Source: Candidatus Latescibacterota bacterium
GTDB taxonomy: Bacteria; Latescibacterota; UBA2968; UBA8231
Assembly: GCA_965208105.1 (NCBI GenBank)
Contig: OZ242318.1
Span: 4,544,001-4,608,000, forward strand
Reading direction: 5' to 3'
Length of the DNA stretch: 64,000 nucleotides
The first letter of the stretch is position 1, and every line of letters begins with the position of its first letter. Of the stretch, positions 39,824-57,006 are shown in pieces. Position numbers and translations under genes: made by a program. Under the pieces are notes generated by a model that saw only the letters and a list, made by a program, of their open reading frames with translations, was not told the origin of the DNA and did not search any database.

Positions 39824-39867
39824 AGGAGATCGGGTAGGACGGGTGAGTCGAGTCTAATCCCCAAACC

Positions 39868-40712: not shown

Positions 40713-41228
40713 ATGACAAGGATCTTACCTGTAGTTTCGGTTACTCTTCTTTTGGTTGGCTGCTCCCGCTCCGGCCACCATCCTGAACCGATAGCTCCCC
40801 AGAATACGCGCTCGCCCTATGATATAGAGGCCCACGCCGTTAGGGTATACAAGACTGGGGTCCAAGGGCAGAAATCAGGACTGAAGGACCCTCAGGTAAC
40901 GCTTAATGTTGCAGATTCGATCGCTGCCCGGGTCGGTATTTGGATGCGGAACGTGGGGCAGGTCATTTTGCCGGAAGGATCTATGCACTACAAGGTCACG
41001 ATCAATGACAAGCGGCTCTCAACTGACGGAGGATACGGTAATTCGGCTCCAAAGAATCCGGGAAAGTTTCAAATCTACTACATTCCAGTCAAAACTATCC
41101 TGCGCACTTACAAGTTGAATAAACCCGGTCGCTACGAGGTCGTGTTTCGGGTTTGGCTTGACGAAGAATTTGGTGAAACGAATCTCGACAACAATGAGTT
41201 GATTCACTACTTCGATGTGGAAGAATAG
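40713..41228 (+). CDS. CSRSGHHP lipoprotein L6
   Basis: L4-type signal peptide joined to an L3/L5-type mature domain. Confidence 0.75.
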   Translation: MTRILPVVSVTLLLVGCSRSGHHPEPIAPQNTRSPYDIEAHAVRVYKTGVQGQKSGLKDPQVTLNVADSIAARVGIWMRNVGQVILPEGSMHYKVTINDKRLSTDGGYGNSAPKNPGKFQIYYIPVKTILRTYKLNKPGRYEVVFRVWLDEEFGETNLDNNELIHYFDVEE

Positions 41229-41271
41229 CGGAGATGGGGTTGGACCGGTGAATCGGTCTTTTCCCCACGCC

Positions 41272-42654
41272 ATGCGTACTCAATTTCACAGCCGCAGTCG
41301 TCTGTTCAAGTTCATCCTCCTGGCGGGGCTGCTGCACCTGCTGCTTATCGTCGCGATTGGGGTGCGCACGATATATGATGTCAAAGAGCCCACCATGTCG
41401 GGAAAGTTTGTCAAACGCCGGCCGCTGCAGCAGCCGGTTTTGCGGCGCCCTCTGCTTCAACCTTCCCCCGAGCGCCGGCTGGAGCGCATTGTGGAGGCGC
41501 CCCGCGCTTACTCCAGGGCCGTGGTCCAGCGAGCATTGAGCCCGGTTTCCCCCCGGTTGCTGTCGAGCCGCCATGTGCTGCCCTCGCTTCCTCCCAGACC
41601 CCTGCGACCGTCCGGCAGTTTTCGCGGCAGCGGCCGCCTGCGGTCCACGGCGGCCGGGATCGAGATTCAGGCGGAGGACCACATGGACCTGGGTCTGGAA
41701 CTGCTGGACGTGGACGCCTTCGATACGGGGCGTTATCGCGCCCTGGTGGTGCAGGACCCCATGGACAAGCGCAAGCTGCAGGGTTTCGTGCGCTTCACCG
41801 CGGTGGAGATCCGTTCCGCCTCGGAGAATCTGGCGGATCTCTTTTGGGGCATGCCCATAGCCGCGGCACGCAGTATCGATCGAGGTAGCGTGTACTGGCC
41901 GGATTGGCGCCATTCGGCGAATGTTCGGGCGCTGCACAGCCTGGCGATGGAGTTGGAGGCGGAGACCGGGTTGAGCGCCGTGGTGGACGAGAACATCACA
42001 CTGGACGCTCCGGAGGTGCTGACCAGTCCATTCATTATGCTGACCAGCCTTGTGGAATTCGAGCCGACGGAAACCGAGGTCGCCAAGCTGGGGCGCTATC
42101 TGACCTCGGGTGGTTTTGCCTACGTGGAGCAGGTTGGCTCGGACTCCCATGGACGGCAGAGCGGGACCTTTCCGGAGATCATTTCCTTGCGTTCCCTGGT
42201 GCGCCGTGCCCTGGCCTCCCAAGGGCTGGGCGAAGGCGGCGACTGGAGCTTCGAACCGCTGTCGATGGACCATCCCCTCTTCCACTGTTACTATGACATC
42301 GACACCCTGCCCCTCAACTTTTGGCAAGCGACTTACGTCGACCGGGAGGGGCAAACCGAGCGGTATGGCCAAAGTCGATATCCCACGGACGAGTACATCC
42401 CTCGCTATATCGAGGGAATTCACCTGAACGGCAGGCTGGTGCTGGTGTATTCGCAGCAGAACTATCGCGATTTCTGGTCGAAACGTCCGGAGCGAACGCT
42501 GACCGAGGCGTCAGAACACTTTCTGGCCAATTGGAATCAGGTGCCCTTCCATCGACCGAGCAGCATTCCGGCGATCCGCCTCGGCATCAACGTGATGGTC
42601 TACGCTCTGACCCAGGAAGGCTCCTTGGCCAGGCACCTGGTCATGGGGAGGTGA
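41272..42654 (+). CDS. DUF4159-like protein D2 (460 aa, colinear paralog of D1)
   Basis: ATG 41272 matches the D1 start; same length and motifs. Confidence 0.7.
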   Translation: MRTQFHSRSRLFKFILLAGLLHLLLIVAIGVRTIYDVKEPTMSGKFVKRRPLQQPVLRRPLLQPSPERRLERIVEAPRAYSRAVVQRALSPVSPRLLSSRHVLPSLPPRPLRPSGSFRGSGRLRSTAAGIEIQAEDHMDLGLELLDVDAFDTGRYRALVVQDPMDKRKLQGFVRFTAVEIRSASENLADLFWGMPIAAARSIDRGSVYWPDWRHSANVRALHSLAMELEAETGLSAVVDENITLDAPEVLTSPFIMLTSLVEFEPTETEVAKLGRYLTSGGFAYVEQVGSDSHGRQSGTFPEIISLRSLVRRALASQGLGEGGDWSFEPLSMDHPLFHCYYDIDTLPLNFWQATYVDREGQTERYGQSRYPTDEYIPRYIEGIHLNGRLVLVYSQQNYRDFWSKRPERTLTEASEHFLANWNQVPFHRPSSIPAIRLGINVMVYALTQEGSLARHLVMGR

Positions 42655-42701: not shown

Positions 42702-44423
42702 ATGAGAAGTAGATTTTCGGGTTCGTATATCTCGAGCAGATCAAGCTATGGAATTTTTCTCGTTGCGGCCTCGGTTTCCTTTTTGTTGGCCCAACCCTCA
42801 CTCGCGCAAGAATGGCTGAGTGAGGGAGAGGAAGGGTTTCTCCCTGGCAAGCTCGACGGACTGGAGATAACCAACGATGGGGATCTTCGCCTGACATCCT
42901 TCGAGGGGGTCAACTTCGCCCTGGGGATCGACACCTATTCCAATGGTACGGCCCTGGGGGCCGCGCTCACCGACGGAAACCTCGCCACCGAGTGGGATTT
43001 CGACGAGGATCCAAAGGTAGTCGGCAAGACCATCGACATCGATCTGGGCGGCAACCGGCTCGTCAACCAGGTGCGCATCTTGCCCGGCTCCGGGGCCGGT
43101 GCCGATAACCCGGAGTATTTCGTCAAAGGATACCGGGTCGAGATGGCCCCTGAAGAGGCGCCTGATGCGTTCGGTGTGGTGGCGGACAACCATGTCAATC
43201 GAGTCCCCCTGGTAGATACGAGCGCCGACGGTACCTGGCTGCGCTACGAAGACGGTGCTCCGGTTGCCACACTGGGAAGATACCTCCGGGTCACCATCAC
43301 ACGGCAGGATCTGCCCAATTGGGTGATCATCGGCGAGGTGGAAGTGTTCGGCACCGGGTTTCATGCCCGCGGCCAGTACTTGTCGGCCCTTCACGACTTC
43401 GGTGAACGGGTCAACGTTGGCGCCGGGTTTTTCCAAGCCGAGACCCCGCCTGGAACCCGGATGCACTTGCAGTTTCGAGCCGGTGTTGACCAGGACTACC
43501 TGCCGAGGTGGGATGATTTTCCCTTTTACGGCGTGGATGAGGGCAAGCGGGGTGTCTTTTTCCCTGTCCGCGATCCCTCCCGGTACATCCAGTACCGAGC
43601 CCTGCTGGAGACGGAGAATCCGTTCATCTCACCTGAGCTTAGCGAGGTGCGGGTGCAGTTCGACCCCCGGCTCGTTGCCCGGTCAGCCACCGGCAGAATC
43701 GATCCGCGTGAAGTGCCTGTGGGAGAGCCGGTGAGTCTCACCTACACTGCCGAGATTTATCTGGGCTCGGAGAACTACCCTCTGGACCTTTTGATCCTGG
43801 ACCGGCCTGGGAAGCTGGAAGAGATCTCCATGAGGTTGGCTGTGGTTCCTCCTGAGAAATACAGGACGCTGACGCCGCATGGTTCGCTGCAGGAAGACAA
43901 TCTGATCATCCAGCTCGACCCCGATCTCATCCGTTCAAGCGTCAGACAATTGGAAATTGTTTTCACCACCGTCTTCTTCATGGGCACCGAGGAAGTGAAT
44001 TTGTTCCTCGGGTCTTCGCTAGAAGGTTCCGACCCTGAAAACCTGCAGAAGGTCGCACCGCGGATAAAGGACGGCACGTTAGTGACCGTACTGGGTGCAG
44101 TCGACGAGCTTGTGCCTTCCGCCAGCGTGGCGATCCGGCCGCGGGTGTTCAGGCCGGACCGCGGCGGCGCTACGCGCATCGAGTTCGATCTGACCAAGGT
44201 ACTCGTGCCGGTGCCCGTGACGGTTACCATTCACGAGTTGTCCGGCCGCCGGGTTAGCACCGTGGTCGATCGCGAGATGTTGGCAGCTGGTGAGATCTCC
44301 ATCTCCTGGGACGGCTTCGACGACCACCGCGGGGTTCTCGCACCAGGGATCTACATGTGCAGGATCCGGGTCCACGCCCAGGAATCCGCGACCCTCGTTC
44401 GTTTCCTGGGCATCGCCTATTGA
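42702..44423 (+). CDS. Secreted discoidin/F5-8-like domain protein with C-terminal FlgD-like Ig domain
   Basis: Signal peptide; LTDGN..TEW, IDIDLGG, GRYLRVTI, IGEVEVFG; C-terminal IHELSGRRV...WDGFDD..GVLAPGIY. Confidence 0.7.
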   Translation: MRSRFSGSYISSRSSYGIFLVAASVSFLLAQPSLAQEWLSEGEEGFLPGKLDGLEITNDGDLRLTSFEGVNFALGIDTYSNGTALGAALTDGNLATEWDFDEDPKVVGKTIDIDLGGNRLVNQVRILPGSGAGADNPEYFVKGYRVEMAPEEAPDAFGVVADNHVNRVPLVDTSADGTWLRYEDGAPVATLGRYLRVTITRQDLPNWVIIGEVEVFGTGFHARGQYLSALHDFGERVNVGAGFFQAETPPGTRMHLQFRAGVDQDYLPRWDDFPFYGVDEGKRGVFFPVRDPSRYIQYRALLETENPFISPELSEVRVQFDPRLVARSATGRIDPREVPVGEPVSLTYTAEIYLGSENYPLDLLILDRPGKLEEISMRLAVVPPEKYRTLTPHGSLQEDNLIIQLDPDLIRSSVRQLEIVFTTVFFMGTEEVNLFLGSSLEGSDPENLQKVAPRIKDGTLVTVLGAVDELVPSASVAIRPRVFRPDRGGATRIEFDLTKVLVPVPVTVTIHELSGRRVSTVVDREMLAAGEISISWDGFDDHRGVLAPGIYMCRIRVHAQESATLVRFLGIAY

Positions 44424-44436
44424 CGCGAGGCGCAAT

Positions 44437-47067
44437 GTGAAACGGGTTGTTCTACCCTTGTTGCTCTTCGGCTTGTCCGCCGGTGCTTTCGCCTCGGAGA
44501 AAGACTATGGTGTTTTACTCCAGCGACCCGCGATGAAAGCCTACCGCAACTACGCCGAATACTCCTACCGGAATTACCGCTCCGCTCTCCGCGTAAACCC
44601 GCGCTACAGCTTTCTGGGCGATTTTCTTGCCGAAGGATTTCGCGCTTTCAGACTCGACGACCAGCGTCCCGGCAGGAGTCTCCTCTCCAAGGACGGGGTC
44701 TACCGGGGCATGTTCGGAAACCTGCTCATTGCGCGCAACTCCTACGGGCGCCTCAACCTGGCCCTGACCGTCGGCGACGATGTGCGCACCCACCTGACCC
44801 CCCTGACCATGCAGCGGGCCAGTTTCAATGGTCTGCGCTGGGAGATCGAGTTCGCCAACAACCGGGTAACCCTGCTCAGCACTCGCGGCTACGACAACTC
44901 GGAGTTTCCGGCTTTCCCCAGCTTTTCTACTCCCATCGATGACAATTTCACCGACTTCCGGGGAGATCTGGAGCAGGAGTTCATTATCGAGGAAGACGAT
45001 CCGGTCTACACTTTCGGGGGCCACTGGGAAACCCAGGCGGGGGACGTGCTGACCCTGGGGATGACCTTTCTCAACCAGCAGCAGATCAACACCGGGGCGC
45101 TGCGCCAGGACAGCTTTGTGGCCGGCAGCGTGCCCTATCCCGAGATGTTGTCGCCTGAGAAACTGATGCTGCGCATCACCGACGACTCCCCCGGCAGTAG
45201 GGACCATGGCGCCACCATATTTACCGCCTTTCTGGAAATGGAGGGGAGCGTGGGTGGAGAGAACACCACGATCAGCAGCGATCCTCGCAGCCCCCATTTC
45301 GACGAATCGCTGCAGCCAAAGACGGAAGGGGTGGTGAAGGAGAATGGAAGGTGGGACATTCGCGGCGACGAGGAACTTATAATTACTTTCGAGCTGCCGG
45401 AAGGCAGCACCTCCAGGCGCGCCCGCTTCATCGTGTCCGCGGCCAACGACTATCGCATCGCCGCGGCGCAGGAGCACATATTCTATCTGGACTTAAGCTC
45501 GCGCACGACTCCCTTCATGACCCTGCGCCGCGCCTCAGGCGAGGTGAGCGACGGCTCCAACTTCCGGGAGCTGGTGATCGACTACGGTCTCAACAGCGGC
45601 CAGATCCTCTACGGTATGGACTTCGCCGCCGACCTGGCGGGCCTCAAGCTGCGCGGCGAGGTGTCGAAAAACACCCTCTACCGCAAGTACCCGATCATAT
45701 CCGGCCGCAGCCTGCGCCGCGATACCGGGGCCTGGTACCTGCAGGCGGTAAGGACCTTTCCGCGCCTGCGCCGGCTTTCCCTGGGCGCCGAGTTCTTCCA
45801 CGTCGGCCCGCGCTACGGCGGCGGCTACGACAGCCGCCGCGGCGGTGTGGTGCTCTACACGGATTTTGGCGGGGAGGGCATCGATCCTGTAACGGCCGAG
45901 TTTCCCCTGGTGGACGACAACGACGACAACGACCGCTACTCCGACGACAACAAAAACGATTTTCCCGGGTCCTTCGACCTGGAGTCGGGGGTCTACCCGG
46001 GGCTCGACGAAGACAACGACAACATCCCCGACGACGACCGCAACGCCAACGGCATTCCCGATTTCGAGGAGCCCTTTCTGCTCTACCATTCCGACCCCCA
46101 GGAGTTCGTCTATGGCCTGGATTTGAACAACAACGGGGTCATCGACGTGCGCGAGAACGACAACAAGCCCGACTATCCCTACGACCGCGACCGCCGCGGC
46201 CGCCACTACACCGTGGCCGCGCAGCCTTTGCCGCAGCTGGAGGTGGGGGCGGGTCACTACCGCATCCGCGCGTTGGCCGACCCCGGGCGCACCGTCTCCA
46301 CCTACCTGCGCGCCGCCTACTCTTACGCCCACCCCGAGAAGCTGGAGATCGAGCTCAACCACGACTCCAAGCGGGTCAGGGACACTATTCCCGATTCGGT
46401 CTACGTCTTCGATCCGGCCCGCATCGTGACGCCCCTGGAACCGCCGGACCCCGATCCCCTGCTGCAACAGAACAGTTGGGTGCACACCTCCTTTGCCGGG
46501 GTGCGCTGGAGCCGCTGGGCGCCGCTCTACCTGGAGGCCAATTTCAAACAGGTCCTCAACCGCCTGTTCGACCTGGGCCACACGCGGGTGTCGGAGCGCG
46601 ACCGCCGGGTGACCCGGACCATGGTCAACAAGGTGGACTACCGGATGGAGTGGGGCCGCTTCACGGTGATGCCCATGTACAAGCGCCTGTGGCGCCGGGT
46701 GGATCTGGACTCCCGGGAGGGTGCGGCGGTGTGGGAGGTGCAGTCGGCGCCGATGCTGCGGGTGGACTACCGGGTGAGCGGAGACATGAAGGTGCAGATG
46801 GGCCAGCAGGGGCTGCGGCTTCCCTTTGCGGGCATGGACCGTGTGCTGGCGTTTCACCTGGACGACCAGGTGCGGCGCTATCGCAGCTACACCTCCACCG
46901 ACTTCATGTTCATGCTCACGTTGAAGGGCAGCTACCTGGGCAACGTGCTGACGACCAACTCGGGGATTCAACTGCACAGCCGCCGGTTCGACCAGATCGG
47001 GGCGGGGTCGGATCTCAAGTTCACCCGCTTCTTCGTGGAAGTGGTGGCCGGATTCGAGCATTTCTGA
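44437..47067 (+). CDS. Large outer-membrane-type protein with Asp/Asn-rich Ca-binding-like repeats
   Basis: GTG start with signal peptide; family motifs shared with 1245..4214; ends FFVEVVAGFEHF. Confidence 0.72.
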   Translation: MKRVVLPLLLFGLSAGAFASEKDYGVLLQRPAMKAYRNYAEYSYRNYRSALRVNPRYSFLGDFLAEGFRAFRLDDQRPGRSLLSKDGVYRGMFGNLLIARNSYGRLNLALTVGDDVRTHLTPLTMQRASFNGLRWEIEFANNRVTLLSTRGYDNSEFPAFPSFSTPIDDNFTDFRGDLEQEFIIEEDDPVYTFGGHWETQAGDVLTLGMTFLNQQQINTGALRQDSFVAGSVPYPEMLSPEKLMLRITDDSPGSRDHGATIFTAFLEMEGSVGGENTTISSDPRSPHFDESLQPKTEGVVKENGRWDIRGDEELIITFELPEGSTSRRARFIVSAANDYRIAAAQEHIFYLDLSSRTTPFMTLRRASGEVSDGSNFRELVIDYGLNSGQILYGMDFAADLAGLKLRGEVSKNTLYRKYPIISGRSLRRDTGAWYLQAVRTFPRLRRLSLGAEFFHVGPRYGGGYDSRRGGVVLYTDFGGEGIDPVTAEFPLVDDNDDNDRYSDDNKNDFPGSFDLESGVYPGLDEDNDNIPDDDRNANGIPDFEEPFLLYHSDPQEFVYGLDLNNNGVIDVRENDNKPDYPYDRDRRGRHYTVAAQPLPQLEVGAGHYRIRALADPGRTVSTYLRAAYSYAHPEKLEIELNHDSKRVRDTIPDSVYVFDPARIVTPLEPPDPDPLLQQNSWVHTSFAGVRWSRWAPLYLEANFKQVLNRLFDLGHTRVSERDRRVTRTMVNKVDYRMEWGRFTVMPMYKRLWRRVDLDSREGAAVWEVQSAPMLRVDYRVSGDMKVQMGQQGLRLPFAGMDRVLAFHLDDQVRRYRSYTSTDFMFMLTLKGSYLGNVLTTNSGIQLHSRRFDQIGAGSDLKFTRFFVEVVAGFEHF

Positions 47068-47082
47068 GCGGAGCGTTCTTCC

Positions 47083-50000
47083 ATGACTCTCATAGCCATG
47101 TTTTCGGTTTTCCTGGTAACCGTCGGGGTCAGCCTCCTGGAGGACTCGCCGCGGGAGCTGGGCAACCGCTTCAAGCGCGCCCAAAAATTAATGGTGATGG
47201 GGGACTTCGACACTTCCATCGCCGCCTACGAGCAGCTCATGGAGACCCCCGGCTCGGCCCTGCTGCGAGCGGACCGGGTGGAGGTAGAGGTGGGTGAGGA
47301 GGTGCTGCCCCTCAAGGTGGCCGCCGCCTACCAGGTGGCCAGCAGCTACCGCCGCCGGGCAGAGGAGCAGTTGCAGGTCTACCGGGACAGCGCCGTTGTG
47401 CCCCGGTTCGAGGACCTGCACACCGCGGCCCGTTTCTACCGGATCCTGGCGGACGAGGAGAGCACCCCTGAAACTCTGCGCCAGCGGGCCGCTTTTCAGG
47501 TGGGCAGTTGCTATTTCAAGAACCAGGATTACGTCGAGGCCATAGCCGCATTCGACTGGTTCGTCCAGGCGTTTCCTTCCAGCGAGTACCGTCTCCAGGC
47601 GAGCTACCACACCGCCTGGGCCCTCTTCCACACCGAGCAATGGGAACGGGCGGGGGCGGAGTTTCGCGCCGTGGCCTCCCAGGTCCCAGGCACCGACCGG
47701 GGTCTCAGGTCCCTGTTCCAGTCGGGAGAAGCCGAGGAAAGAATGGGTCGTTTCGAGCGCTCGGTGCGGGCTTTTGAGGAGATCGCCGCCTTTTACGACG
47801 AGGGCGAGTACGGAGCGGGCCTCCGCCGCGACGAGCTCATGCGCGCCCTGCGCGAAAAGCTCCCGGTCACTCGCCGCGAGCTCATCGGCAAGGGGCACAT
47901 GCGCACCGGGGACGCCTATCGCCATCTCGACTCCCTCGCCGCCGCTGCGCACTGGTACCGGCTGACCGCGCGCCGATTTCCCACCGACGCGCAACTGCTC
48001 AAGGACGCCTATCTGCGCCTGGCCGAGATGGATGCCGACGCCGGGCGCGTGGACGAGGCCCTGGCGGCCTACCGCACCGCCCTGGAGGAGGTGATGGATC
48101 CATTCTTCCGCGCCCTGGTCCAGGCCGAGATGATGGCTCTGGCCTTCGCATCGGAGCGCTATCTCGAAGCCGCGCAGATGTATGGATTCTACATAGATGC
48201 CTTCGGCTCCTATGCCGAAGAGGTAGGCGTTCCCGTCGACCGGGCACGACTGCTCAAGGCGGAGTCCCTGCGCCTCGCCGCCCAGGATACGGCAGACCCG
48301 GCCTCCTCCGACTCCCTCCACGCACGCTCTCTTGAAGTCTATCACGGCCTGTTGCAGAGCACCCGGGTGGACAGCCTGGCGGCAGAGGCGTTGCTGGGTG
48401 CCGGAATCTGCCTGCAAAGTCTCGACCGTCCCGGCGCCGCGCGAGAGCACTACGAGAGGCTCACCGGCGAATACGGCGCAACCCGGGTGGCCATGTGGGG
48501 AAGGCTGCACCTGGCGCGCCTCTATGCCGAGGAAGGAGCCAGGGCCAAGGCGCTGCGCCACTACGAGGACCTGGCGGCCGGCGGCGACGGGGAGCTGCGC
48601 GACCTCGCTCGCATGGAGCTGGCCGTGCTTCTGGAGGGGGAGGGGCAGAGCGACCGGGCCTTGGAGCTGCTTTCCCGGATAGGGCCCGAGTCCGCGGAGT
48701 TCGGCCGCGCTCAGATGGTATTGGCCCGCCTGCTCACTGTCCGCGAGCGTTGGGCCGAGGCGCGCCGGGTGGTCCACCACGCCCTCGACCGGGCCGTGGA
48801 CCCGTCGGTCCGGGCCCAGTTGAGCTACTCCCGTGCCGAAATCGCCTTCGAGGCAGCCCAGTACGACTCGGTAATCCGCATCCTGGCCGCATTGGATACC
48901 ACCCGGCTGCAGCAGCCTTTTGACCACGACCGCCTCTACCTGCGCGGCGTCGCGCGCTACCAGACCGGAGCATACGCCCGGGCATTGGACGACCTTCGCG
49001 CCTACCTTGCCGGTGATGCGGCGCTGCGGGCGCAGACCATTCAGACCATCGCCCTGTGCCTGGGGCAACTGCTGGAGGCGGAGCAGGCCGCGGAGCAACT
49101 GGTCCGGTGGGGCGCCGAGGCGACGGACCCCGGTGAGGGCGGCGAATGGACCATGGGCCTGGCGCGGTTTCTCCACCGCCGGAAAGACTACGACCGCGCC
49201 CTCGAGGTGCTGCAGGGGCTGGATAGCGAAAACGACCTCCAGGCCCACCGCGCCCGCCTCGTGGAGGGCGAAATTCTGCTGGCGCAGCAACGCTGGGACG
49301 CCGCTCGCACGGTCCTGGCGCAGATCCAACCCGACCCCCTCTCGCCCGGCGACCGCTCGCACCGCCTCTACCTGATGGGGATCGCCGCCATGAACGGGGA
49401 GGACTACGAGGGGGCGGTTTTCAGCTTTCAGGCCTTGCTGGCGCTCCGCACTCAGGGCGATCTTTCCCGCCAGGCCGCCCTCTACCTTGGCCAGAGTTAC
49501 TACACCCTGGGAAAGTACCCCCGCGCCGCTGCGGTCTTCGAGGATCTTGCGGAGCGCTTTCCTGCTCACCCGGACGGCCACGAAGCGGCCTACCTGGCCG
49601 GGGACAACTATTACCTGCTCGGGGACTACGAGCGGGCATCCCGGGCCTACCAGAGAGTACTTCTGGGCCCGCGCCTTCCCGAGGCTATGCTCGCCCTGGC
49701 CTGGTGCCATCTGCACAGAGAGGACGCCGCGGCCATGGAGCAGGCCCTGAAACTCCTGCAGGAGCGCTTCCCCCAAAGTCCTCTGGCCCCTCGGGCGGCC
49801 ATGATGTTCGCCGATTACCACTACAACCGCGCAGACTACAAGCGCGCCAGCCAGGCCTACGAGAGCCTGAGGCGGCGCTATCCCCAAAGCCCGGAAGCCG
49901 GGCGCTCGTCGCGGCTGCTGGTGGATCTGGCCGACCTGGAAGCCGATCGCCTCTACCAGGAGGCCATGGCCGCCTTCGACGGCGGCGACTACGAGGGCGC

Positions 50001-50223
50001 CCGTCGGCAGCTGGAGGCGGTGGCGCAGCGTTTTCCCGGCACCCTGTCGGAGATGGCGGCGCGCTGCAACATCGGGGTGTGCTACGAGAAGACGGGACAG
50101 TGGCGCCGGGCCGCCGCCGTCTACGACAGCCTGCTGCAGAGGGGGGAGGCCGATCCGCAGTACGGCGCCATGCTGCGCTTTGCGCGGGAGCACCGCGACT
50201 GGATTCGCGACTACCGACTCTAA
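47083..50223 (+). CDS. Large tetratricopeptide-repeat protein (BamD/CpoB-like repeats)
   Basis: N-terminal hydrophobic segment; many A..Y..A...F..L...FP repeats. Confidence 0.8.
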   Translation: MTLIAMFSVFLVTVGVSLLEDSPRELGNRFKRAQKLMVMGDFDTSIAAYEQLMETPGSALLRADRVEVEVGEEVLPLKVAAAYQVASSYRRRAEEQLQVYRDSAVVPRFEDLHTAARFYRILADEESTPETLRQRAAFQVGSCYFKNQDYVEAIAAFDWFVQAFPSSEYRLQASYHTAWALFHTEQWERAGAEFRAVASQVPGTDRGLRSLFQSGEAEERMGRFERSVRAFEEIAAFYDEGEYGAGLRRDELMRALREKLPVTRRELIGKGHMRTGDAYRHLDSLAAAAHWYRLTARRFPTDAQLLKDAYLRLAEMDADAGRVDEALAAYRTALEEVMDPFFRALVQAEMMALAFASERYLEAAQMYGFYIDAFGSYAEEVGVPVDRARLLKAESLRLAAQDTADPASSDSLHARSLEVYHGLLQSTRVDSLAAEALLGAGICLQSLDRPGAAREHYERLTGEYGATRVAMWGRLHLARLYAEEGARAKALRHYEDLAAGGDGELRDLARMELAVLLEGEGQSDRALELLSRIGPESAEFGRAQMVLARLLTVRERWAEARRVVHHALDRAVDPSVRAQLSYSRAEIAFEAAQYDSVIRILAALDTTRLQQPFDHDRLYLRGVARYQTGAYARALDDLRAYLAGDAALRAQTIQTIALCLGQLLEAEQAAEQLVRWGAEATDPGEGGEWTMGLARFLHRRKDYDRALEVLQGLDSENDLQAHRARLVEGEILLAQQRWDAARTVLAQIQPDPLSPGDRSHRLYLMGIAAMNGEDYEGAVFSFQALLALRTQGDLSRQAALYLGQSYYTLGKYPRAAAVFEDLAERFPAHPDGHEAAYLAGDNYYLLGDYERASRAYQRVLLGPRLPEAMLALAWCHLHREDAAAMEQALKLLQERFPQSPLAPRAAMMFADYHYNRADYKRASQAYESLRRRYPQSPEAGRSSRLLVDLADLEADRLYQEAMAAFDGGDYEGARRQLEAVAQRFPGTLSEMAARCNIGVCYEKTGQWRRAAAVYDSLLQRGEADPQYGAMLRFAREHRDWIRDYRL

Positions 50224-50250
50224 CCCGCCGATCAGGCGAGGAGATACTTC

Positions 50251-50907
50251 ATGGGCATAGATTCCTTCCTTCTCGATCAGTTTGACAAGGGCGGTCCGCT
50301 GATGTGGCCCCTGGCGCTGTGCTCGCTGACGGCGCTCACCGTCGGTCTGGAGCGCCTGTGGGTGCTGCTGCGGGTCCCGGGGGACGAGGGCGCCCGCGCC
50401 GAAATGGAGGCGGTTCTGGCGCGGAAGGAGGAACTGGACGGGGCCGACCTTTTGGCCCACCTGCTTCAGCGCAAGGGGGTGCTGGCGGCGGTCTACGCCG
50501 CGGTGCAGCGCAAGTATCTGGCGCTTTTGGAGGAGGGCCAGGGAGCGGCGGAGCAGCGCGCCGAGCTGGGTCGGGAGGCCAACGCGGCCTGCCGCGAGTA
50601 TCTGGGCCAGTTTCTTCCGGTTCTGAGCACGATTGGCAGCATCGCTCCGCTGTTGGGTCTTCTGGGCACGATCACGGGGATGATCAAGGCCTTTGCGGCC
50701 ATCGCCACGGCGGGGGTGGGGGATCCGAGCCAGGTGGCCGACGGCATCTCGGAGGCGCTGATCACCACGGCGACGGGTCTGATCATCGCGATCCCGGTGA
50801 TCGTGCTGCACCGCTACCTGGCGCTGCGCGCCGGCCGCGTCATGCGGCGCCTGGAGCTCTACACCCAGGCGCTGGGCCGCGCCCTGGTGGAGGAGGAACG
50901 CCGGTGA
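50251..50907 (+). CDS. exbB: MotA/TolQ/ExbB proton channel protein
   Basis: GGPLMWPL, IAPLLGLLGTITGMIKAF, GISEALITTATGLIIAIP. Confidence 0.88.
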   Translation: MGIDSFLLDQFDKGGPLMWPLALCSLTALTVGLERLWVLLRVPGDEGARAEMEAVLARKEELDGADLLAHLLQRKGVLAAVYAAVQRKYLALLEEGQGAAEQRAELGREANAACREYLGQFLPVLSTIGSIAPLLGLLGTITGMIKAFAAIATAGVGDPSQVADGISEALITTATGLIIAIPVIVLHRYLALRAGRVMRRLELYTQALGRALVEEERR

Positions 50908-51335
50908 ACATCTACGACGAAGCCGGGGCCCCCGGCTTCGACCAATCCGACCATCCGGACCTGACGCCCTTGATCGACTGCGTCATGCTGCTGTTGGTGT
51001 TCTTCATGATCACCACGGCCTTCTACGCTTTGCGCGGGCTCGAGGTGGTGATGCCGCCGGTGTCGGCCACCGCGGCCGCGCCGGAGGTCGACCGCGACGT
51101 CAACGTCTACATCGGCCCCTCGGGGGCCATCCAGGTACGCGGCTCCACGGTGGAGCCGGCCCAGTTGGCCGAGGTCTTCAAGGAGGCGGCCGGCGAGGGC
51201 GGCCGGGCCCTGGTGCTGGAGGCGGCGCCCCAGGTCGAGCACGAGCGCGTCGTCCTGGTGATGGACCTGGCGCGCCAAGCGGGGATCCGCGAGGTGATCT
51301 TCGCCCGCATGGAGGAGGAGGGCCATGGACCCTGA
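50904..51335 (+). CDS. exbD: ExbD/TolR biopolymer transport protein 1
   Basis: GTG overlaps the exbB stop; DLTPLIDCVMLLLVFFMITT. Confidence 0.85.
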   Translation: MNIYDEAGAPGFDQSDHPDLTPLIDCVMLLLVFFMITTAFYALRGLEVVMPPVSATAAAPEVDRDVNVYIGPSGAIQVRGSTVEPAQLAEVFKEAAGEGGRALVLEAAPQVEHERVVLVMDLARQAGIREVIFARMEEEGHGP

Positions 51336-51750
51336 AGGCGAACTTTTCTGGGACGAGATCAAGCCGGACCTCACTCCTCTGATCGACGGGGTGTTTCTGC
51401 TTTTGATTTTCTTCATGGTGACCACCATCTTCGCCCGGCCCATCAGCCTCGAGGTGGAGCTGCCGGCGGCGGCCGATCCGGCCGACGTGAAGGCGCAGCA
51501 CGTCAAGCTCTACGTCACCGACAAGGGGCAGTTGGACCTGGAAGGAGAAAAGATCGACGCGGCAGGGCTGGAAGAGGCGCTGCGGCCCTACGTGGGCGAG
51601 GGCCGGGAAATCAGGCTGACCATTCTGGCCGACCGCCGCACCCCCCACGGCCATACCCTGGAGGCCATGGAGGCGGCGCAGCGCGCCGGGATCCACCGGG
51701 TCTACCTGGCCACCAGGACTCGCAACCCGGGAGAAGGGAGCGCACCGTGA
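51325..51750 (+). CDS. exbD: ExbD/TolR biopolymer transport protein 2
   Basis: DLTPLIDGVFLLLIFFMVTT, VELP, ILADRR. Confidence 0.85.
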   Translation: MDPEGELFWDEIKPDLTPLIDGVFLLLIFFMVTTIFARPISLEVELPAAADPADVKAQHVKLYVTDKGQLDLEGEKIDAAGLEEALRPYVGEGREIRLTILADRRTPHGHTLEAMEAAQRAGIHRVYLATRTRNPGEGSAP

Positions 51751-52481
51751 CCAGGTGGATCCCTGCCGTGATGGCGGCGTGGCTGGTGGCCGCCGGCTGC
51801 GGTCTCCTGCCGGTGCCCAGGTCCCACCTGGTGCGCTTCGCCTTCGTGCCCGGGGAGAGGGCGGCCTACTCCCTCGATGCGGCCGACAGCGCCGCGGTCT
51901 ATCGCACCGAGGGCCTGGTCGTCAAGGTGAGCTACCGCTCGAAGCAGGCCCTCAACCTGGAGTATCCCGACGCCCGCGAGGGCCGGGTCAATCTCAACCC
52001 CTTCACCTACGGCACCCGCATGGACAACGATCTGGGCTACGCCCCGGACCGTTTCACCGTCTTCGAGGTGGACCTCAACAACATCGGCCGGCCGCGGGTC
52101 CAGTTTGCCGCGCGGGACGCCGAGCTGGTCACCGACCGCGGCGACCGGCTGCGTCCCTGGGGCACGCAGAAGGGGGAGGCGGTGCACACCTTCGAGGAGT
52201 ATTACCGCGCCCGGCGCGGCCCGGGGGGCAACGACCAGCAGTGGTACCGGCAGCGTCTGGCCATCGTGGAGAAATCGCTCTACCGCGGTGACGGGCCGTT
52301 GTTCAAGGGGCAGCGGCAGCGCGGCAAGCTGGTGTTCGGCCTTTTGCACCCGGAGGTGGCCTCGGTGCGCCTGCACCTGCGCGAGGTGGTCCTGGCCTTC
52401 GACGAGCACGGGCTGCCCACCGAGCGCATCGATCTGGAGTTTCCCTTCGAGATCAGCGTCGAGGTCGAGGAGCTGGAGTGA
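51747..52481 (+). CDS. Lipoprotein of unknown function
   Basis: VAAGC lipobox; translationally coupled to exbD2 (GTGA). Confidence 0.65.
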   Translation: MTRWIPAVMAAWLVAAGCGLLPVPRSHLVRFAFVPGERAAYSLDAADSAAVYRTEGLVVKVSYRSKQALNLEYPDAREGRVNLNPFTYGTRMDNDLGYAPDRFTVFEVDLNNIGRPRVQFAARDAELVTDRGDRLRPWGTQKGEAVHTFEEYYRARRGPGGNDQQWYRQRLAIVEKSLYRGDGPLFKGQRQRGKLVFGLLHPEVASVRLHLREVVLAFDEHGLPTERIDLEFPFEISVEVEELE

Positions 52482-52492
52482 GTCGGGAAGCA

Positions 52493-55145
52493 ATGGCAAC
52501 TGAAGCAATCATCGGAAAAACGTTGCGCCGAAGCGGTCTTGCCCTGGGGGTGGCCCTGTTGGCGCCGGCCGCCCTGCAGGGAGGCGAGGATCCCCATGCG
52601 CCCCAATTTCTCCAGCGTCCCGCGGCCCATGCCTACGCCAACTACGCGGAGACCCCGTTCAAGCCCTACCGAGCCCGCCTCCGTTACGATCCACGCTACA
52701 ATTTCTTCGGTGAGTACCTGGGGGAAGGATATCGTCCTTTCCTGATGGACGAACGGCGACCGGGCAGAAGTATCGTCACCAAGAACGAGATCTATCGCGC
52801 TACCTTTCAAAATCTCTTGGTTGCCCGCAGCTCCTACAACACTATCAGCGCCGCACTCACCGTGGGCGACGAGATCCGTCAGACCCTTTCTCCCTTGACC
52901 ATGCAGCGCACCGCCTTCAACGGGGTGCGCTGGGAGATTCACTCGCCCGCCCACCGTCTCACCCTGCTGGCCTCGCGCGGCTTCGAGAACAAGGATTTCC
53001 CCGGGTTTTACACCTTCTCAACCCCGGTCAGCGTCGATCCGCTGAGGTACAACTACGACCTGCGCCAGACCAGCGACCTCACCGTAATCGAGAACAACCC
53101 GGTCTATACCTTCGGGGGACACTGGGAAACGGAGATTGCCGGCGCTCTCTCTTTCGGGGCCACCTTCGTCAACCAGCAGCAACTCAACAGCGAGGCGGAC
53201 CGCAAGGACGGCTATCTCCGCGGTGGCGTGCCCTTCCCGGAGATTCAACCGCCCGAGTCCATCGTCCTGCGCTTCGCCGACGATTCCCCCGAGGACGGTG
53301 TCGGCGGGGCGGCCCTGTTCCGCGTTGTGATGGACCTGGAAGGCACCTCTGCGGGGGTGGATACCCTGTTGAGCAGCGATCCCCGCAGTCCCCACTACCG
53401 GCCGGAGCTGGAGCCGGTGGTGGCTGGCGGGAGAAGGGTGCGGGACCACCGGGAGGCCAACGGGATGGACGTGATAACCGTCATCTTCCCCCTGCCGCCG
53501 GATGTGACGCCGCGCCGCGCCCTGTTTCGTTTGGTGGTGGCCAACGACTACCGCATCGAGATCCCCGTCACCGGCACCGGCGGAGGACGGGTCTCCAGCC
53601 TTACCCTGCGCCGCGCCCCCGGCAACGTGCGCGACTTCTCCAACCAGACCGAAATCGCGGTGGACCACGGGCTCAATTCGGGGCCAGACCCTCTACGGGG
53701 TCGATTTCAGCGCCGATCTGGTGGGGCTCAAGGTGCGCGGCGAGATCGCCGCCAATACTCTCTACCGCAAATTTCCCGTGCTCGGCGGCCATAACGACGA
53801 CACCCACAGCCGCGCCTGGTACCTGAATCTGATGCGCACTCTGCCCCGTTTCCACCGGCTCCAGGTGGGGGCGGAGTTCTTCCGCATCGGGCCCCGGTAC
53901 GGGGGCGGCTACGACAGCCGCCGAGGCGGGGTGGTGCTCTACCGCGGCAAGGGAAACAGGGTGGCGGAATTTCCCCTGGTGGACGACAACGACGACCGCG
54001 ACCGCTACGCCGATGACAATGTCAATGATTTCTTCGGGGGCCCGGCCAAGGAGGCGGGGGTCTTTCCCGGCCTCGACGAGGACAACGACAATATTCCCGA
54101 CAACGACCGCAACGCCAACGGGGTCCCTGATTTTGAGGAGCCCTTCCTGCTCTACGATTCCGATCCACAGGAGTTCGTCTACGGTCTCGACATGAACAAC
54201 AACGGCGTCATCGACGCCCGCGAGAACGACGACAAGCCGGAATATCCCTACGACCGCGACCGCGAAGGGAAGCACTTAACCGCCGCGGTTCGTCCACTGC
54301 CCGGACTGGAGTTGGGCGCCGGCTACTACCGCCTCCGCGCCATCGCCGCCGGCGGAAGGGCCCTTTCCGCCTACCTGCGCGCCGCCTACCGCCATGACCT
54401 GCCCGGGCATTTCACCCTGGACCTCAACCACGACTCCAAGCGGGTCAAGGATACCATCCCGGATCCCGTGTACCTCTTTCATCCCGGCCGCGTTCCCGAC
54501 CCTCTGGAGCCGCTGGGCGCGCCCGACCCGGATCCACTACTGCAGAAAAACAGCCGGGTCCACACCTCCTTCTTCGGCCTGCGCTACACCCGTTTCGCCC
54601 CGCTCAACCTCGAGACCACGGTGAAGCGCGTTTACAACCGCATGTTCGCTGCGGGGGGCACGGCAGGGTCGGCACCGGACACCCGGGTGGACTACACCAT
54701 GGTGAACAAGGTGGACTACCGCTGGCAGTGGAGGCGCTTCGTCCTGCGTCCCATGTACAAACGGCTGTGGCAGCGCTTGACCCTGGACTCGCACAGGAGG
54801 CCGCTGGTGTGGGAGGTCCGGGCGGCTCCGATCCTGCGTCTGGACTACGTGGTGAGCGACGAAATCATGGTGCAGGTGGGGCAGCAGGGATTTCGGCTGC
54901 CCTTTCTCGGCATCCGCCGCGGTCTTGCCTTCCGCTCCATCGACCGGGTGGAGTCCTTCCGCAGCCATTCCTCTACCGACTTCCTGGCGATGTTGACGAT
55001 CAAATCCACCTATGTGGGCAGCAGCATTGTCGCCAACACCGGTTTTCATCGCCACAAGGCCGAGTTCGACGATCCCCGGGTGGAGGAGAAGCGCAAGTTT
55101 ACCCGGCTCTTCGTCGAGGTGGTCACCGGATTCGAGCGATTTTGA
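52493..55145 (+). pseudogene. Third paralog of the large outer-membrane protein, split by a +1 frameshift at G4 (53680-53683)
   Basis: ORFs 52478..53794 and 53721..55145 match the two halves of 44437..47067. Removing one G restores NSGQTLYGVDF (paralog NSGQILYGMDF). Confidence 0.75.
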
Positions 55146-55260: not shown

Positions 55261-57006
55261 ATGATCGACTCCCTCAAAGACTACTGCGCCCTCCTGGTCA
55301 GATATCTCCGGCCCTACCGGGGGAAACTGCTGTTGCTCGCCGTGCTGCTGGTCGGCGGCACCGGTCTGCAGGCTGCGGTTCCTCTGGCCATACGCTACTT
55401 CATAGACACGGCCACGGCCCAGGGTGCCCTCAGCCAGCTGTACCTGGCCGCATTGCTGTTCCTGGCCGGCGGCTTTGTGTCGCAGCTCCTGCCCGCATTG
55501 TCCACCTACGTCGGGGAGGACATATCCTGGCGCGCCACGAACCGGCTCAGGTCCGATCTTACCTCTCACGTGCTGCGCCTGGACATGTCCTTTCACAACG
55601 CGCGCACCACCGGTGAACTGATTGAACGCATCGACGGCGACGTGACCAAGCTGGCCAACTTCTTCTCGGCCTTCGCCGTCCGCCTGTTGGGCAGCTTCCT
55701 GTGGGCCCTCGGCATCGTGATCGCCCTCGGGTGGGTGGACTGGAGACTGGGTCTGGCCCTGGCCGCCTTTATCGTCGTCTACCTGGTTGCCAGCTCCAGG
55801 GTGTACGGTCGGGCGGTGTCCCGCTGGCACGCCGAAAGCGAAAACAGGGCGGAGCTCTACGGCTATCTCGGAGACCGGGTCCCCGGGATAAAGGACATTC
55901 GCACCTGTGGGGCCATAGAGTACGTCATGCGGGGCTTCCACTCCGGTTTGAGAGATGCATTCAAAGCACTTGTGCGCGCCTGCAGGGCAGAGGCCGTGGG
56001 AATGTACGTGGCCCACATGACCTGGTTTCTGGCCTACGCCGCCGCTCTGGCTCTGGGGATCTTTTTGTTCCAGAGAGCGGAAATTACCATCGGGACCGTA
56101 TACCTGATTCTCCACTACCTGGAATCGATACGGTCTCCCATCACCCAGGTCGTCAGCGAGATAGAAGACCTGCAGCGGGCCAGGGCCAGCATCGCCCGGG
56201 TCAGGGAGCTCCTCGCCGTCCACTCCGGTCTGGCGGATGGCAAAAGAGCCTTACTTCCCGACGCCGGTCTCTCGGTGCAACTTGACCGCGTCTCATTTTC
56301 CTACCACGCGAATAATCGAGTGCTGGGCGATATCTCCCTCGACATCTCCGCGGGAAGGGCGGTGGGCGTGCTGGGACGCACGGGAAGCGGCAAGACCACC
56401 TTGTCGCGGCTGCTGTTCCGCCTCTATGATCCGGACCGGGGCGCCATTCGCCTGAACGGCGTGGACATCCGCGACCTTCCCCTGGGACATCTGCGCCGGC
56501 GCCTGGGAATGGTGACTCAGGACGTACAACTGTTCCAGGCCACGGTGAGGGACAATCTCACCCTGTTCGATCCCCTCGTCGGCGATGACCGCATCCTCGA
56601 GAACCTGGAGCAGCTCGGTCTGGGCAGGTGGTACGGTGCGCTGCCTCGGGGGCTCGATACGGAACTGGCGGCCGGCGGCGGCGGATTTTCGGCGGGCGAG
56701 GCTCAGCTCTTCGCCTTCGCCCGGGTGTTCCTGAAAGATCCGCGGCTGGTGATTTTGGACGAGGCGACCTCGCGCCTGGATCCAGACACCGAGCGCCTCA
56801 TAGAGAGGGCGGTGGAAGGGCTTGTTGCGGGGCGCACGGCTCTCATCATCGCCCACCGCCTGGCCACGGTGCAGAGGCTCGACGACATCGTGATTCTGGA
56901 AAGGGGACGCATCGAGGAGTGCGGGGAGCGCAAATCCCTTATGGCCGATCCGCACTCGCGATTCTCCCGGTTGCTGCAGACGGGATTGGAGGAGGCGCTG
57001 GCATGA
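55261..57006 (+). CDS. ABC exporter, fused permease/ATPase subunit 1
   Basis: TM bundle; GRTGSGKT, degenerate signature FSAGEAQ, ILDEATS, IAHRL. Confidence 0.9.

Follow-up and report, generated by a model that had tools for sequence, protein, structure and literature searches.

A Ton/Tol-like envelope gene cluster of a Latescibacterota bacterium with putative DUF4159 transducers and plug-less giant outer-membrane barrels

What kind of envelope machine would use an ExbB motor and two ExbD paralogues, encoded next to giant outer-membrane (OM) proteins, with no TonB_C domain nearby? The window (the whole stretch of 64,000 nucleotides analysed here) carries eight genes at 42702–55145, all on the + strand, in the order G1 (surface protein), OM-A, G3 (TPR protein), ExbB, ExbD, ExbD, G7 (lipoprotein) and OM-B. 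Consecutive genes are separated by 13, 15, 27, −4, −11, −4 and −4 nt (negative values are overlaps) and G1 starts 47 nt past D2, a gene discussed below. The tight cluster described in the original prediction is thus borne out in coordinates, strand and packing. OM-B (52478–55145) had been taken for a single open frame and is not: it is read in two frames (52478–53794 and 53721–55145), because one surplus base breaks the sequence near residue 402, in a GGGGCC run at ∼ 53680–53685. An intact orthologue (P0023, 888 aa) is 94% and 97.5% identical to the two halves. We hold it to be very probable that the parts of the cluster make up one functional system.

Related loci were compared using 79 loci from the best 80 of 505 confirmed relatives. 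They carry eight phylum-level labels as deposited, and many are cut by contig ends, so that the counts of loci are lower bounds. In at least 65 of the 79, a relative of G1 is encoded no more than 1.3 kb upstream of a barrel gene, and in at least 30 a TPR gene lies directly downstream of one. At least 22 have the TPR protein, a DUF4159 protein and G7 in the same locus, and at least 16 have ExbB (with ExbD in 13 of those). The close loci L003–L008 all have the TPR protein and G7, and five of these six have D2; no ExbB or ExbD was found within the stretch covered, hence either the motor genes lie elsewhere or a motor can sometimes be dispensed with. Genomes carry multiple barrel paralogues, with several barrel/tail-protein pairs per genome that lack a motor; most barrel/tail-protein pairs have none nearby. 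In some loci a barrel is accompanied by two or three tail proteins.

ExbB (50251–50907, +; MotA_ExbB, 101.1 bits) is predicted to be an ExbB/TolQ-type proton channel, that is, a stator. TolQ is its best NCBIfam match (80 bits) and ExbB scores 71 bits, both under the equivalog cut-offs. The first ExbD paralogue (50904–51335, +; ExbD, 77.7 bits) overlaps the stop codon of ExbB and is followed by the second (51325–51750, +; 92 bits). Both match TolR best in NCBIfam (∼ 50 bits) and both keep the membrane-helix aspartate, Asp25 and Asp21 respectively.

Two genes upstream of G1, D1 (37110–38492, +; 460 aa) and D2 (41215–42654, +; 479 aa), encode proteins that are 86% identical and match Pfam DUF4159 (65.2 and 62.8 bits). 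D2 consists of a basic N-terminus, one membrane helix (with Ala37 and His41), a conserved motif at ∼ Phe65–Pro70, a Pro/Arg-rich linker and the DUF4159 head; D1 likewise has the conserved His in a membrane helix, and past the helix the conserved motif. According to the available text of PMC12215075, Ser16/His20 of TonB and Ser18/His22 of TolA make contact with ExbB/TolQ, and ExbD is bound by the D-box of TonB (residues 45–51). Among 28 aligned DUF4159 relatives the His is kept in 26 (all except L040 and L059), and position −4 from it is always Ser (15) or Ala (13); the window's own proteins and their closest relatives have Ala there, not Ser. F65 is nearly invariant and P70 invariant, 24–29 residues past the His. 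The linker of the seven nearest relatives (L001–L008) has a Pro fraction of 0.14–0.18 and a Lys + Arg fraction of 0.16–0.18. In seven loci a DUF4159 gene starts directly downstream of ExbD. Because they share the build of TonB and TolA, including the motor-binding motif, D1 and D2 are likely to be motor-coupled transducers. The cluster had been described as lacking TonB. This stands for the domain, as TonB_C, like Plug and TonB_dep_Rec, is absent from the 14 cluster ORFs and from 27 further long ORFs elsewhere in the window, but not for the TonB/TolA build. A profile search of the PDB with D2 gave a sole match, the DUF4159 structure 4i66 (E 1.9e-21). We know of no docking-domain role for the DUF4159 fold family, which could be enzymatic, a point against the transducer reading, as are the Ala at position −4 and the two relatives without the His.

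G3 (47083–50223, +; 1046 aa) is a probable periplasmic scaffold. Its N-terminus is a hydrophobic anchor or signal without a lipobox, and among the TPR families that it matches is YbgF/CpoB (TIGR02795, 152 bits over five stretches); untruncated matches have open frames of 1039–1119 aa. G7 (51747–52481, +) has a lipobox (Cys18), and no family was found for it. Its AF2 model (pLDDT 86.8) is a beta-sandwich, for which Foldseek returned MPT63/YjhA/ApaG-like folds. Relatives of G7 occur in 42 of the 79 loci, with a lipobox in most of the N-termini listed. All three proteins scanned (from Bacteroidota, Ignavibacteria and Kryptoniota) carry a C-terminal fusion to DUF4159, and the relative in L016 one to a TonB_C-like domain (24.7 bits, cut-off 24.6), with weaker TonB_C-like matches in L066, L013 and L059. 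From these fusions, the head domains appear interchangeable. Since the TonB_C-like domain sits on a lipoprotein and not on a motor-bound helix, a static tether fits as well as a pulling device.

OM-A (44437–47067, +; 876 aa) and OM-B are paralogues, and a third member (1245–4220, −; 991 aa) lies in a satellite position, with 30% identity to OM-A by BLASTP (E 2e-55). Neither Pfam nor NCBIfam has a family matching OM-A; this unannotated family has 865 representatives at E ≤ 1e-10. Besides a signal peptide, OM-A has a conserved N-terminal Tyr-x-Asn-Tyr-Ala segment (conserved residues Y36, N38 and Y39), a beta-sandwich insertion and a loop rich in Asp; the Asp-rich segment of some relatives matches SlpA_C weakly. 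The AF2 model of OM-A (pLDDT 77.8, pTM 0.75) is a giant barrel that starts at about residue 54–63 and has no N-terminal globular plug. Plug and TonB_dep_Rec gave no match to the OM proteins even at E ≤ 10, nor to any of 16 family members scanned. Foldseek returned only generic large barrels, all with TM < 0.4: MtrB at the top, SlpA, LptD and receptor barrels, the last with TM ≤ 0.31. The plug-less MtrB, LptD and SlpA match with E 3.5e-10 to 1e-6, but with TM ≤ 0.37 and no sequence relation the likeness is one of fold class only. The N-terminal segment is probably flexible and, purely by analogy with the TonB box, is a candidate docking site. The original prediction staked itself on conserved gene order and on OM proteins that are not ordinary TonB-dependent receptors. 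The order holds strongly across phyla and the OM proteins are not such receptors, so the prediction survives on both counts.

G1 (42702–44423, +; 573 aa) has a signal peptide, a discoidin domain (F5_F8_type_C, 28.8 bits; cut-off 28.2) and a FlgD-Ig-like tail (FlgD_ig, 22.8 bits, under the cut-off of 27), and is a probable cell-surface binding protein. Its tail scores below all curated cut-offs, whereas those of its relatives clear the cut-offs of CHU_C and of the type-A T9SS sorting domain and match both type A and type B sorting domains. A PorV/PorQ-family gene lies between the tail-protein and barrel genes in 23 of the 79 loci (in L043 it scores 93.5 bits with NF033709, cut-off 90). The window has neither a PorV/PorQ-like nor a T9SS core gene. 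Of the three FlgD-tail proteins that it encodes, two have a barrel paralogue directly downstream. The satellite tail protein (4327–6285, −; FlgD_ig, 60 bits) and the third barrel adjoin a GHL6 hydrolase-like gene (6611–8851, −) and a gene for a polytopic DUF6785/DUF6784 membrane protein with 13 membrane-helix-like segments (9098–11044, +).

The original prediction had counted the array upstream of the cluster as probably part of the machine. This is supported for D2, found with the TPR protein and lipoprotein in 22 of the 79 loci, and not for the six paralogous small lipoproteins among which D1 is interleaved (35909–41228, +; at 35909–36523, 36590–37066, 38638–39189, 39293–39823, 40093–40608 and 40713–41228). 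The latter have in common a lipobox and a C-terminal motif, are unrelated to G7 beyond the signal peptide, and gave a weak CARDB match as their only family match (E 0.05, two of seven). The G+C content is 0.53–0.56 in the array versus 0.60–0.69 elsewhere. These lipoproteins are lineage-specific and, with a relative in only one of the 79 loci, are no more than candidate members.

We propose, with about even confidence and from computational comparison, that the cluster represents a multi-component envelope system conserved in the FCB (Fibrobacteres–Chlorobi–Bacteroidetes) group, of which this is one copy, Ton/Tol-like but with different parts, and that the system probably gates a barrel. ExbB and the two ExbD paralogues, paired as a heterodimer, would form the proton-driven stator in the inner membrane. 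D1 and D2 would replace TonB/TolA, with the single membrane helix (Ser/Ala-x3-His) docking on ExbB, while the short motif past the helix may bind the periplasmic ExbD dimer as the TonB D-box does. The Pro/Arg-rich linker would span the periplasm and the DUF4159 head engage an OM module of the plug-less barrels OM-A and OM-B, G7 and the TPR scaffold. G1, with its type IX-like tail, would sit on the cell surface beside the barrel, and energised gating would import something bound by G1. Import itself, though the likeliest function, is a tentative assignment held with less than even confidence. It is favoured because several barrel/tail pairs per genome have no motor, and because the DUF6785 membrane protein is found in 12 of the 79 loci and in the window satellite, the latter also with the GHL6 gene. 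A discoidin surface protein would suit adhesion equally, and the direction of transport is a guess. The frameshift in OM-B and the close loci without ExbB or ExbD in the stretch covered also weigh against the proposed system.

The barrel might instead work outwards, the motor driving it via the TPR and DUF4159 proteins to translocate or anchor FlgD/T9SS-tail proteins, as a dedicated secretion or attachment pore. The close pairing of tail-protein and barrel genes, here and in the 65 loci, would suit this, as would the loci with two or three tail proteins per barrel and the top structural match, MtrB, a sheath that holds partner proteins. However, the intervening PorV/PorQ-family genes and the type A/B sorting tails seen in relatives point to ordinary type IX secretion as the path of FlgD-tail proteins, with a PorQ/PorP-type anchor and not this barrel; this weakens the export reading, and most pairs have no motor nearby. 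We consider it unlikely. An ordinary Ton system, with the OM proteins as divergent TonB-dependent receptors and their tonB at another place in the genome, we regard as very improbable. The motor is of the Ton/Tol family, receptor barrels are among the weak structural matches, and among named Atlas clusters the closest (0.89, a lead only) is a DUF6029 family labelled 'TonB-dependent receptor-like'; but there is no plug or receptor domain, the TM-scores are low, and the locus has its own conserved TonB-like protein, which belongs to a different family.

A Tol-Pal-like tether, in which motor, transducer, a multi-CpoB-like TPR protein and G7 hold or balance the OM, for instance at division, with the barrels and G1 as passengers, is less probable than export. 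The available text of PMC12204202 describes Bacteroidota without a recognisable tol-pal locus; the TolQ and TolR matches of the motor, the YbgF/CpoB match of G3 and the TonB_C-like or DUF4159 domains on G7 relatives also speak for a tether. Common to both systems are the OM lipoprotein and the trans-envelope design, but the cluster has no TolA_C, TolB or OmpA-type peptidoglycan-binding lipoprotein such as Pal, having giant barrels and a surface protein in their place, and a nearby PD40 protein (34597–35628, −) has relatives in only three of the 79 loci. A housekeeping tether would also leave unexplained why the barrel and surface protein are the most conserved neighbours, and barrel paralogues are multiplied within genomes. 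The Agl-Glt gliding machinery of Myxococcus combines a motor of the TolQR type with TonB-like transducers, TPR proteins in the periplasm, OM barrels and a surface adhesin. This parts list resembles ours, and a motor pulling the discoidin adhesin G1 via transducer and OM platform could serve motility or adhesion. Gliding is suggested for related transducer loci in the available text of PMC12204202. Yet the only trace of a Glt or Gld family was a 20.6-bit TPR similarity to GltC (cut-off 450), the cluster has no cytoplasmic track or regulator genes, and satellite pairs beside hydrolase-like and permease-like genes fit nutrition better. We rate this as still more improbable than a tether.

An import system of the proposed kind would share with Ton the ExbB and ExbD families, several OM barrels per motor, and a single-pass protein with the Ser/Ala-x3-His helix, post-helix motif, Pro-rich linker and globular head. 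It differs in the DUF4159 head (TonB_C in Ton), the barrel family, the two ExbD paralogues, and the TPR protein and lipoprotein as neighbours. As in SusC/SusD loci, a surface binding protein is encoded beside a large OM barrel, with many pairs per genome, some adjoining hydrolase-like and inner-membrane permease-like genes; here the barrel is not a TonB-dependent transporter, and instead of a SusD lipoprotein its partner is a secreted protein of the Sec/T9SS type. In contrast to type IX secretion, no GldL/GldM-type motor is involved.

The original prediction called the machine an unnamed type, which is right in part. Williams-Jones et al. (2025; PMC12204202), in the text available, already propose loci with a gene for a TPR protein, a tolQ-like one and two different tolR-like genes, then one or two His-bearing (SHLS-helix) transducers with a non-TonB head, of unknown function. 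The gene grammar is the same, as is the pair of transducers per locus (in the window and in L010 and L012). For the head they give a vWA fold, whereas ours gives only DUF4159 with Pfam and the PDB profile search; their taxa are mainly Planctomycetes–Verrucomicrobia–Chlamydiae (PVC) and Proteobacteria; and the available account names no OM partner and makes no mention of DUF4159, though their family may include DUF4159 proteins. What would be new is the transducer head and the OM partners of a Ton/Tol-like force-transduction system, in which one motor may serve several barrel/tail-protein pairs, as one TonB serves many receptors.

Eight plus-strand genes are tightly packed between 42702 and 55145, with intergenic gaps of 13–27 nt and overlaps of 4–11 nt at four junctions, as the original prediction had described. 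G1 (42702–44423, 573 aa) combines a signal peptide, a discoidin domain and a FlgD-Ig-like tail. It is followed by OM-A (44437–47067, 876 aa), an outer-membrane barrel without a Pfam or NCBIfam family match; G3 (47083–50223), a 1046-aa protein with TPR throughout; ExbB (50251–50907); two ExbD paralogues (50904–51335 and 51325–51750), both of which keep the membrane-helix Asp; G7 (51747–52481), a lipoprotein without family; and OM-B (52478–55145), a paralogue of OM-A. G1 starts 47 nt after the end of D2 (41215–42654), a protein with a DUF4159 head that is 86% identical to D1 (37110–38492), so that the gene order in the window (G+C about 62%) runs D1 ... D2, G1, OM-A, TPR, ExbB, ExbD, ExbD. Scans for promoters and terminators gave one promoter-like and eight terminator-like sites, versus 4.2 and 16.5 in shuffled sequence, and mark no operon border. 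Starting 115 nt after OM-B are two neighbouring genes for half-size ABC exporters with membrane and ATPase domains (55261–58760, +). They were dropped as members of the system, because their matches in 10 of 79 related loci (see below) look like generic ABC similarity.

OM-B is present as predicted, but it is not a single open frame; a single additional base within a GGGGCC stretch (about 53680–53685), missed originally, splits it into two frames. The orthologue P0023 is intact (888 aa) and shares 94% and 97.5% identity with the two halves. Either the split is thus a sequencing mistake, or a very recent lesion has made OM-B a pseudogene.

OM-A and OM-B are not TonB-dependent receptors. OM-A has no match to Plug (PF07715) or the receptor barrel (PF00593) even at E ≤ 10, and neither domain occurs in any of 16 diverse members of the barrel family, three of which weakly match SlpA_C. 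The AlphaFold2 model of OM-A (62 sequences; pLDDT 77.8, pTM 0.75) is all-beta. Its barrel strands begin at about residue 54–63 and an N-terminal globular plug is absent; a beta-sandwich is inserted at about 240–365 and an Asp-rich loop region lies at about 457–585. Foldseek against the PDB returned large barrels only, namely MtrB (E 3.5e-10), SlpA, LptD and receptor barrels, with TM-scores of at most 0.37 overall (below 0.4) and at most 0.31 to receptor structures. The absence of plug and receptor features noted originally is therefore upheld by domain scans and model alike, and the proteins did not turn out to be ordinary receptors. A profile of 62 family members found nothing meaningful among PDB sequences. 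An exhaustive profile search of 1.84 billion cluster representatives gave 1208 matches at E ≤ 0.001, of which 865 reach E ≤ 1e-10 and 408 reach E ≤ 1e-30; the named matches of OM-A are hypothetical proteins, mainly from Latescibacterota, and its closest Atlas clusters consist of unnamed proteins from Gemmatimonadota and Latescibacterota. The signal peptide is followed by a conserved segment (Tyr36 98%, Asn38 100%, Tyr39 92% of 62 sequences), across which model confidence is low (pLDDT 43–64). By analogy, this segment is a candidate docking site for a transducer.

D1 and D2 share a basic N-terminus, one membrane helix, a Pro/Lys/Arg-rich linker and a globular DUF4159 head. Over the 110 residues after the helix, the linker contains 0.14–0.18 Pro and 0.16–0.18 Lys plus Arg in the seven nearest relatives (L001–L008), with Pro falling to 0.06–0.14 beyond these. 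The membrane helix carries a His in 26 of 28 aligned DUF4159 proteins from the window and the related loci; at position −4 relative to this His, 15 of the proteins have Ser and 13, D1 and D2 among them, have Ala. In E. coli, Ser16/His20 of TonB and Ser18/His22 of TolA (Ser-x3-His, the first half of the SHLS motif of the TonB/TolA helix) are described as contacting ExbB and TolQ, and the TonB D-box (residues 45–51) as forming a strand on the ExbD dimer (PMC12215075). A motif 24–29 residues past the His, with a nearly invariant Phe65 and an invariant Pro70, is a candidate counterpart of this ExbD/TolR-binding D-box. The DUF4159 domain is the sole family found at the C-terminus of D1 and D2, where TonB_C, TonB_2 and TolA_C were not detected. 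The D2 profile matched only 4i66 in the PDB, and the head matched no vWA structure or vWA family. Two D2-based protein searches reached Latescibacterota-type DUF4159 proteins only.

The position immediately behind ExbD, where tonB usually lies, is taken by the start of the DUF4159 gene in seven loci. DUF4159 proteins are encoded in 13 of the 16 loci that carry ExbB; of the three exceptions, two are cut by the contig end and the third has ExbB distant and on the opposite strand. We therefore read D1 and D2 as the likely force transducers of this ExbB/ExbD motor, on the basis of their TonB/TolA-like build, the position of the gene after ExbD, the co-occurrence with ExbB and the conserved Asp of ExbD. 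By head domain they are outside the TonB family, yet they appear from sequence to match its working parts. The original statement that TonB is lacking thus holds by family (TonB_C was found in none of the 41 window ORFs scanned) but not by build.

Gene order was compared in loci from other genomes. A pattern scan with one genome per species found OM-A relatives in at least 505 stretches among at least 642 pattern matches, and the best-scoring subset (the best 80 of at least 505 stretches) yielded 79 loci, against all ORFs of which, taken stop to stop, the window proteins were searched. By the taxon labels deposited with the genome bins, 43 loci belong to Latescibacterota, 11 each to Gemmatimonadota and Bacteroidota, 8 to Ignavibacteria, 2 to Kryptoniota and one each to Zhuqueibacterota, KSB1 and Neomarinimicrobiota; one is unclassified. 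All locus counts are lower bounds, with many loci ending at contig borders. A G1 relative is present in 70 loci and lies at most 1.3 kb upstream of the barrel gene in 65. The TPR protein occurs in 33 loci (directly 3′ of the barrel gene in 30), G7 in 42, a DUF4159 protein in 24, and these three together in 22. ExbB was found in 16 loci, 13 of which also have ExbD; seven phylum-level labels are represented among the ExbB-bearing loci, and a further one of these loci is labelled just ‘uncultured bacterium’. In L003–L008 the locus lacks the motor genes within the stretch covered. Outside the window's clade the typical order is G1, a PorV/PorQ-like gene, barrel, TPR, ExbB, ExbD, DUF4159 protein, G7. 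The order is thus conserved across phyla, the opposite of what would have spoken against a functional unit, and it places D2, which had not been counted among the eight genes, within the system. Three genes that the window lacks come after the system in Bacteroidota and Ignavibacteria (examples are L043 20213–22898 and L017 13970–17865); they encode a DUF5683 protein (11/79 loci), a small protein of ∼133 aa (10/79) and a large Ig-repeat protein of the ASH/HYDIN type (8/79).

The suggestion that the upstream array belongs to the machine is borne out for D2 and not for the six small lipoproteins. These paralogues of ∼170 aa (35909–41228) share a lipobox and a Pro-rich stalk and are interleaved with the DUF4159 genes, in a stretch of lower G+C (0.53–0.56; 35909–42654). 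They have a relative in only one of 79 loci, their family match is limited to weak CARDB, and in a profile comparison with G7 the signal peptides alone align; on this evidence they are not members of the system. In close relatives a single 15-kb contig can hold as many as four DUF4159 paralogues, so the lipoprotein/DUF4159 array looks like a recent expansion. Divergent from the array are genes for an ECF sigma factor (33954–34526, −) and a PD40 beta-propeller protein (34597–35628, −), both dropped as members since each has relatives in only 3/79 loci.

G7 is modelled (pLDDT 86.8) as a beta-sandwich interrupted by a helical insert, and resembles MPT63, YjhA and ApaG-type folds; this common fold points to no function. 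G7 has no match among PDB sequences, its nearest Atlas clusters are hypothetical proteins throughout, and a lipobox is seen in most of the listed N-termini of its relatives. In the window G7 stands alone, without a C-terminal fusion. In three proteins scanned from Bacteroidota, Ignavibacteria and Kryptoniota, it forms the N-terminal half of a ∼500-aa protein with a second DUF4159 domain at the C-terminus. Further relatives have a C-terminal extension of equal length. The C-terminal extension in L016 matches TonB_C at the cut-off (24.7 versus 24.6 bits), with weaker TonB_C/TonB_2 matches in L066, L013 and L059 and none in L040. Since DUF4159 and the TonB_C-like domain occupy the same position on G7, this suggests that they may do similar jobs at the outer-membrane end. 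A complex prediction for the D2 head (215–479) and mature G7 (19–244), with a separate alignment for each, scored 0.00 against a mark of 0.32 and, run without controls, is uninformative either way.

G1 has a discoidin domain just above the cut-off (F5_F8_type_C, 28.8 versus 28.2 bits), and its tail is below every curated cut-off (FlgD_ig 22.8 bits, cut-off 27; PorU-tail similarity 18 bits). Tails of its relatives do pass such thresholds: that of L043 matches CHU_C (30.5 bits, cut-off 27), and that of L017 matches TIGR04183, the type A sorting domain (23.3 bits, cut-off 23). In 23 of 79 loci a 300-aa PorV/PorQ-family gene lies between the G1 and barrel genes (NF033709 in L043, 93.5 bits, cut-off 90). 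The window's clade is without a PorV/PorQ-like gene, and the window itself has no PorP/SprF or PorV/PorQ-family partner; a Pfam scan of 41 window ORFs showed none of the T9SS core genes (porK/L/M/N, sprA). From these tails and neighbours, G1 probably reaches the cell surface through ordinary type IX secretion. A 1001-aa subtilase (Peptidase_S8; 14882–17887, +) with TIG domains also has a FlgD-Ig tail. With G1 and the protein at 4327–6285 (below) this makes three cases in 64 kb, so that in this organism the FlgD-type tail is a general C-terminal tag.

In many loci barrels are paired with tail proteins but no motor is present (G1-barrel-G1-G1 and G7-G1-G1-G1-barrel are examples), and one genome can hold several such pairs. 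The window has one: a third barrel paralogue (1245–4220, −; 991 aa, 30% identity to OM-A, E 2e-55) with a FlgD-tail protein (4327–6285, −) upstream. Beside this satellite pair is a GHL6/GH42M hydrolase-like gene (6611–8851, −), and facing these three genes is one for a polytopic membrane protein of the DUF6785/DUF6784 type (13 membrane-helix-like segments; 9098–11044, +). DUF6785 relatives occur in 12/79 loci. Satellite loci elsewhere frequently carry a SurA-like PPIase of 540–640 aa (26/79 loci), an unannotated 338-aa protein (16/79) and, in two of four satellite loci scanned, FG-GAP/ASPIC proteins; satellite examples are L030 3607–7870, L051 2–2708 and L066 18559–21933. Elsewhere in the window, an MMPL/RND-like transporter (25637–27919), a LolA-like protein (28552–29373) and a weak DUF1302 outer-membrane match (29127–30629), with a squalene/phytoene synthase gene nearby (31928–33028, −), are possibly a lipid-export locus.

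A literature search found no description of this system and none of DUF4159 with ExbB; DUF4159 alone appears only in the Pfam paper. The closest published idea among the sources consulted is that of Williams-Jones et al. (2025; PMC12204202), who describe non-TonB transducer loci in which TPR, one tolQ-like and two different tolR-like genes stand beside a transducer with an SHLS helix and a vWA-fold head. The window likewise has TPR, one ExbB, two ExbD and candidate transducers, and in seven relatives the transducer follows ExbD. In contrast, the head in the window is DUF4159 by sequence, a comparison made with the published description only, and the barrel partners go unmentioned in that description. 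The two sets of transducers could be one family.

In the reading that we favour, the stator of ExbB and the two ExbD proteins would pull on D1 and D2, the DUF4159 heads of which would engage a module of barrel, G7 and TPR protein, and the barrel would thereby be gated for something bound by G1. It is possible, and we put it forward tentatively, that a distinct class of outer-membrane machine, driven by protons and spread across the FCB group, exists alongside Ton and Tol, with plug-less energised importers of ∼900 aa and DUF4159-headed transducers. The barrels would be paired with type IX-tailed surface proteins, and the transducers, together with a dedicated lipoprotein and a TPR ruler of 1000 aa, would couple them to ExbB/ExbD. 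Import is preferred mainly because the motor-less satellite pairs resemble many receptors sharing one TonB.

The pairing of barrels with tail proteins could also be taken to indicate a device for display or export of the latter. We consider this unlikely, since G1 probably takes the ordinary type IX route instead, which argues against the barrel as its exporter. A Tol-like tether is distinctly improbable: the Tol-Pal hallmarks TolB and OmpA_C-type Pal were not found among the cluster ORFs, and PD40 relatives are confined to the three loci mentioned. An adhesion or motility device of the Agl-Glt kind is very doubtful. That the locus is an ordinary Ton system is scarcely credible given the lack of any Plug or receptor match in OM-A or in the 16 family members.

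The locus would define a new family of outer-membrane proteins, the 865 cluster representatives of which (E ≤ 1e-10) include none with a curated-family match. Ton and Tol are the textbook routes of energy to the Gram-negative outer membrane. The present system, whose conservation extends from Bacteroidota to uncultured phyla, Latescibacterota among them, would connect surface proteins bearing type IX tails with a Ton-like motor and would assign a role to DUF4159, a domain without known function. One related locus bears the label Ignavibacterium album; should cultured carriers hold the system, as is to be expected, the substrate that is moved would be open to direct genetic test. If the import reading is true, the machine would, in Latescibacterota, Gemmatimonadota and related groups, be the functional equivalent of SusCD/TonB-dependent transport.
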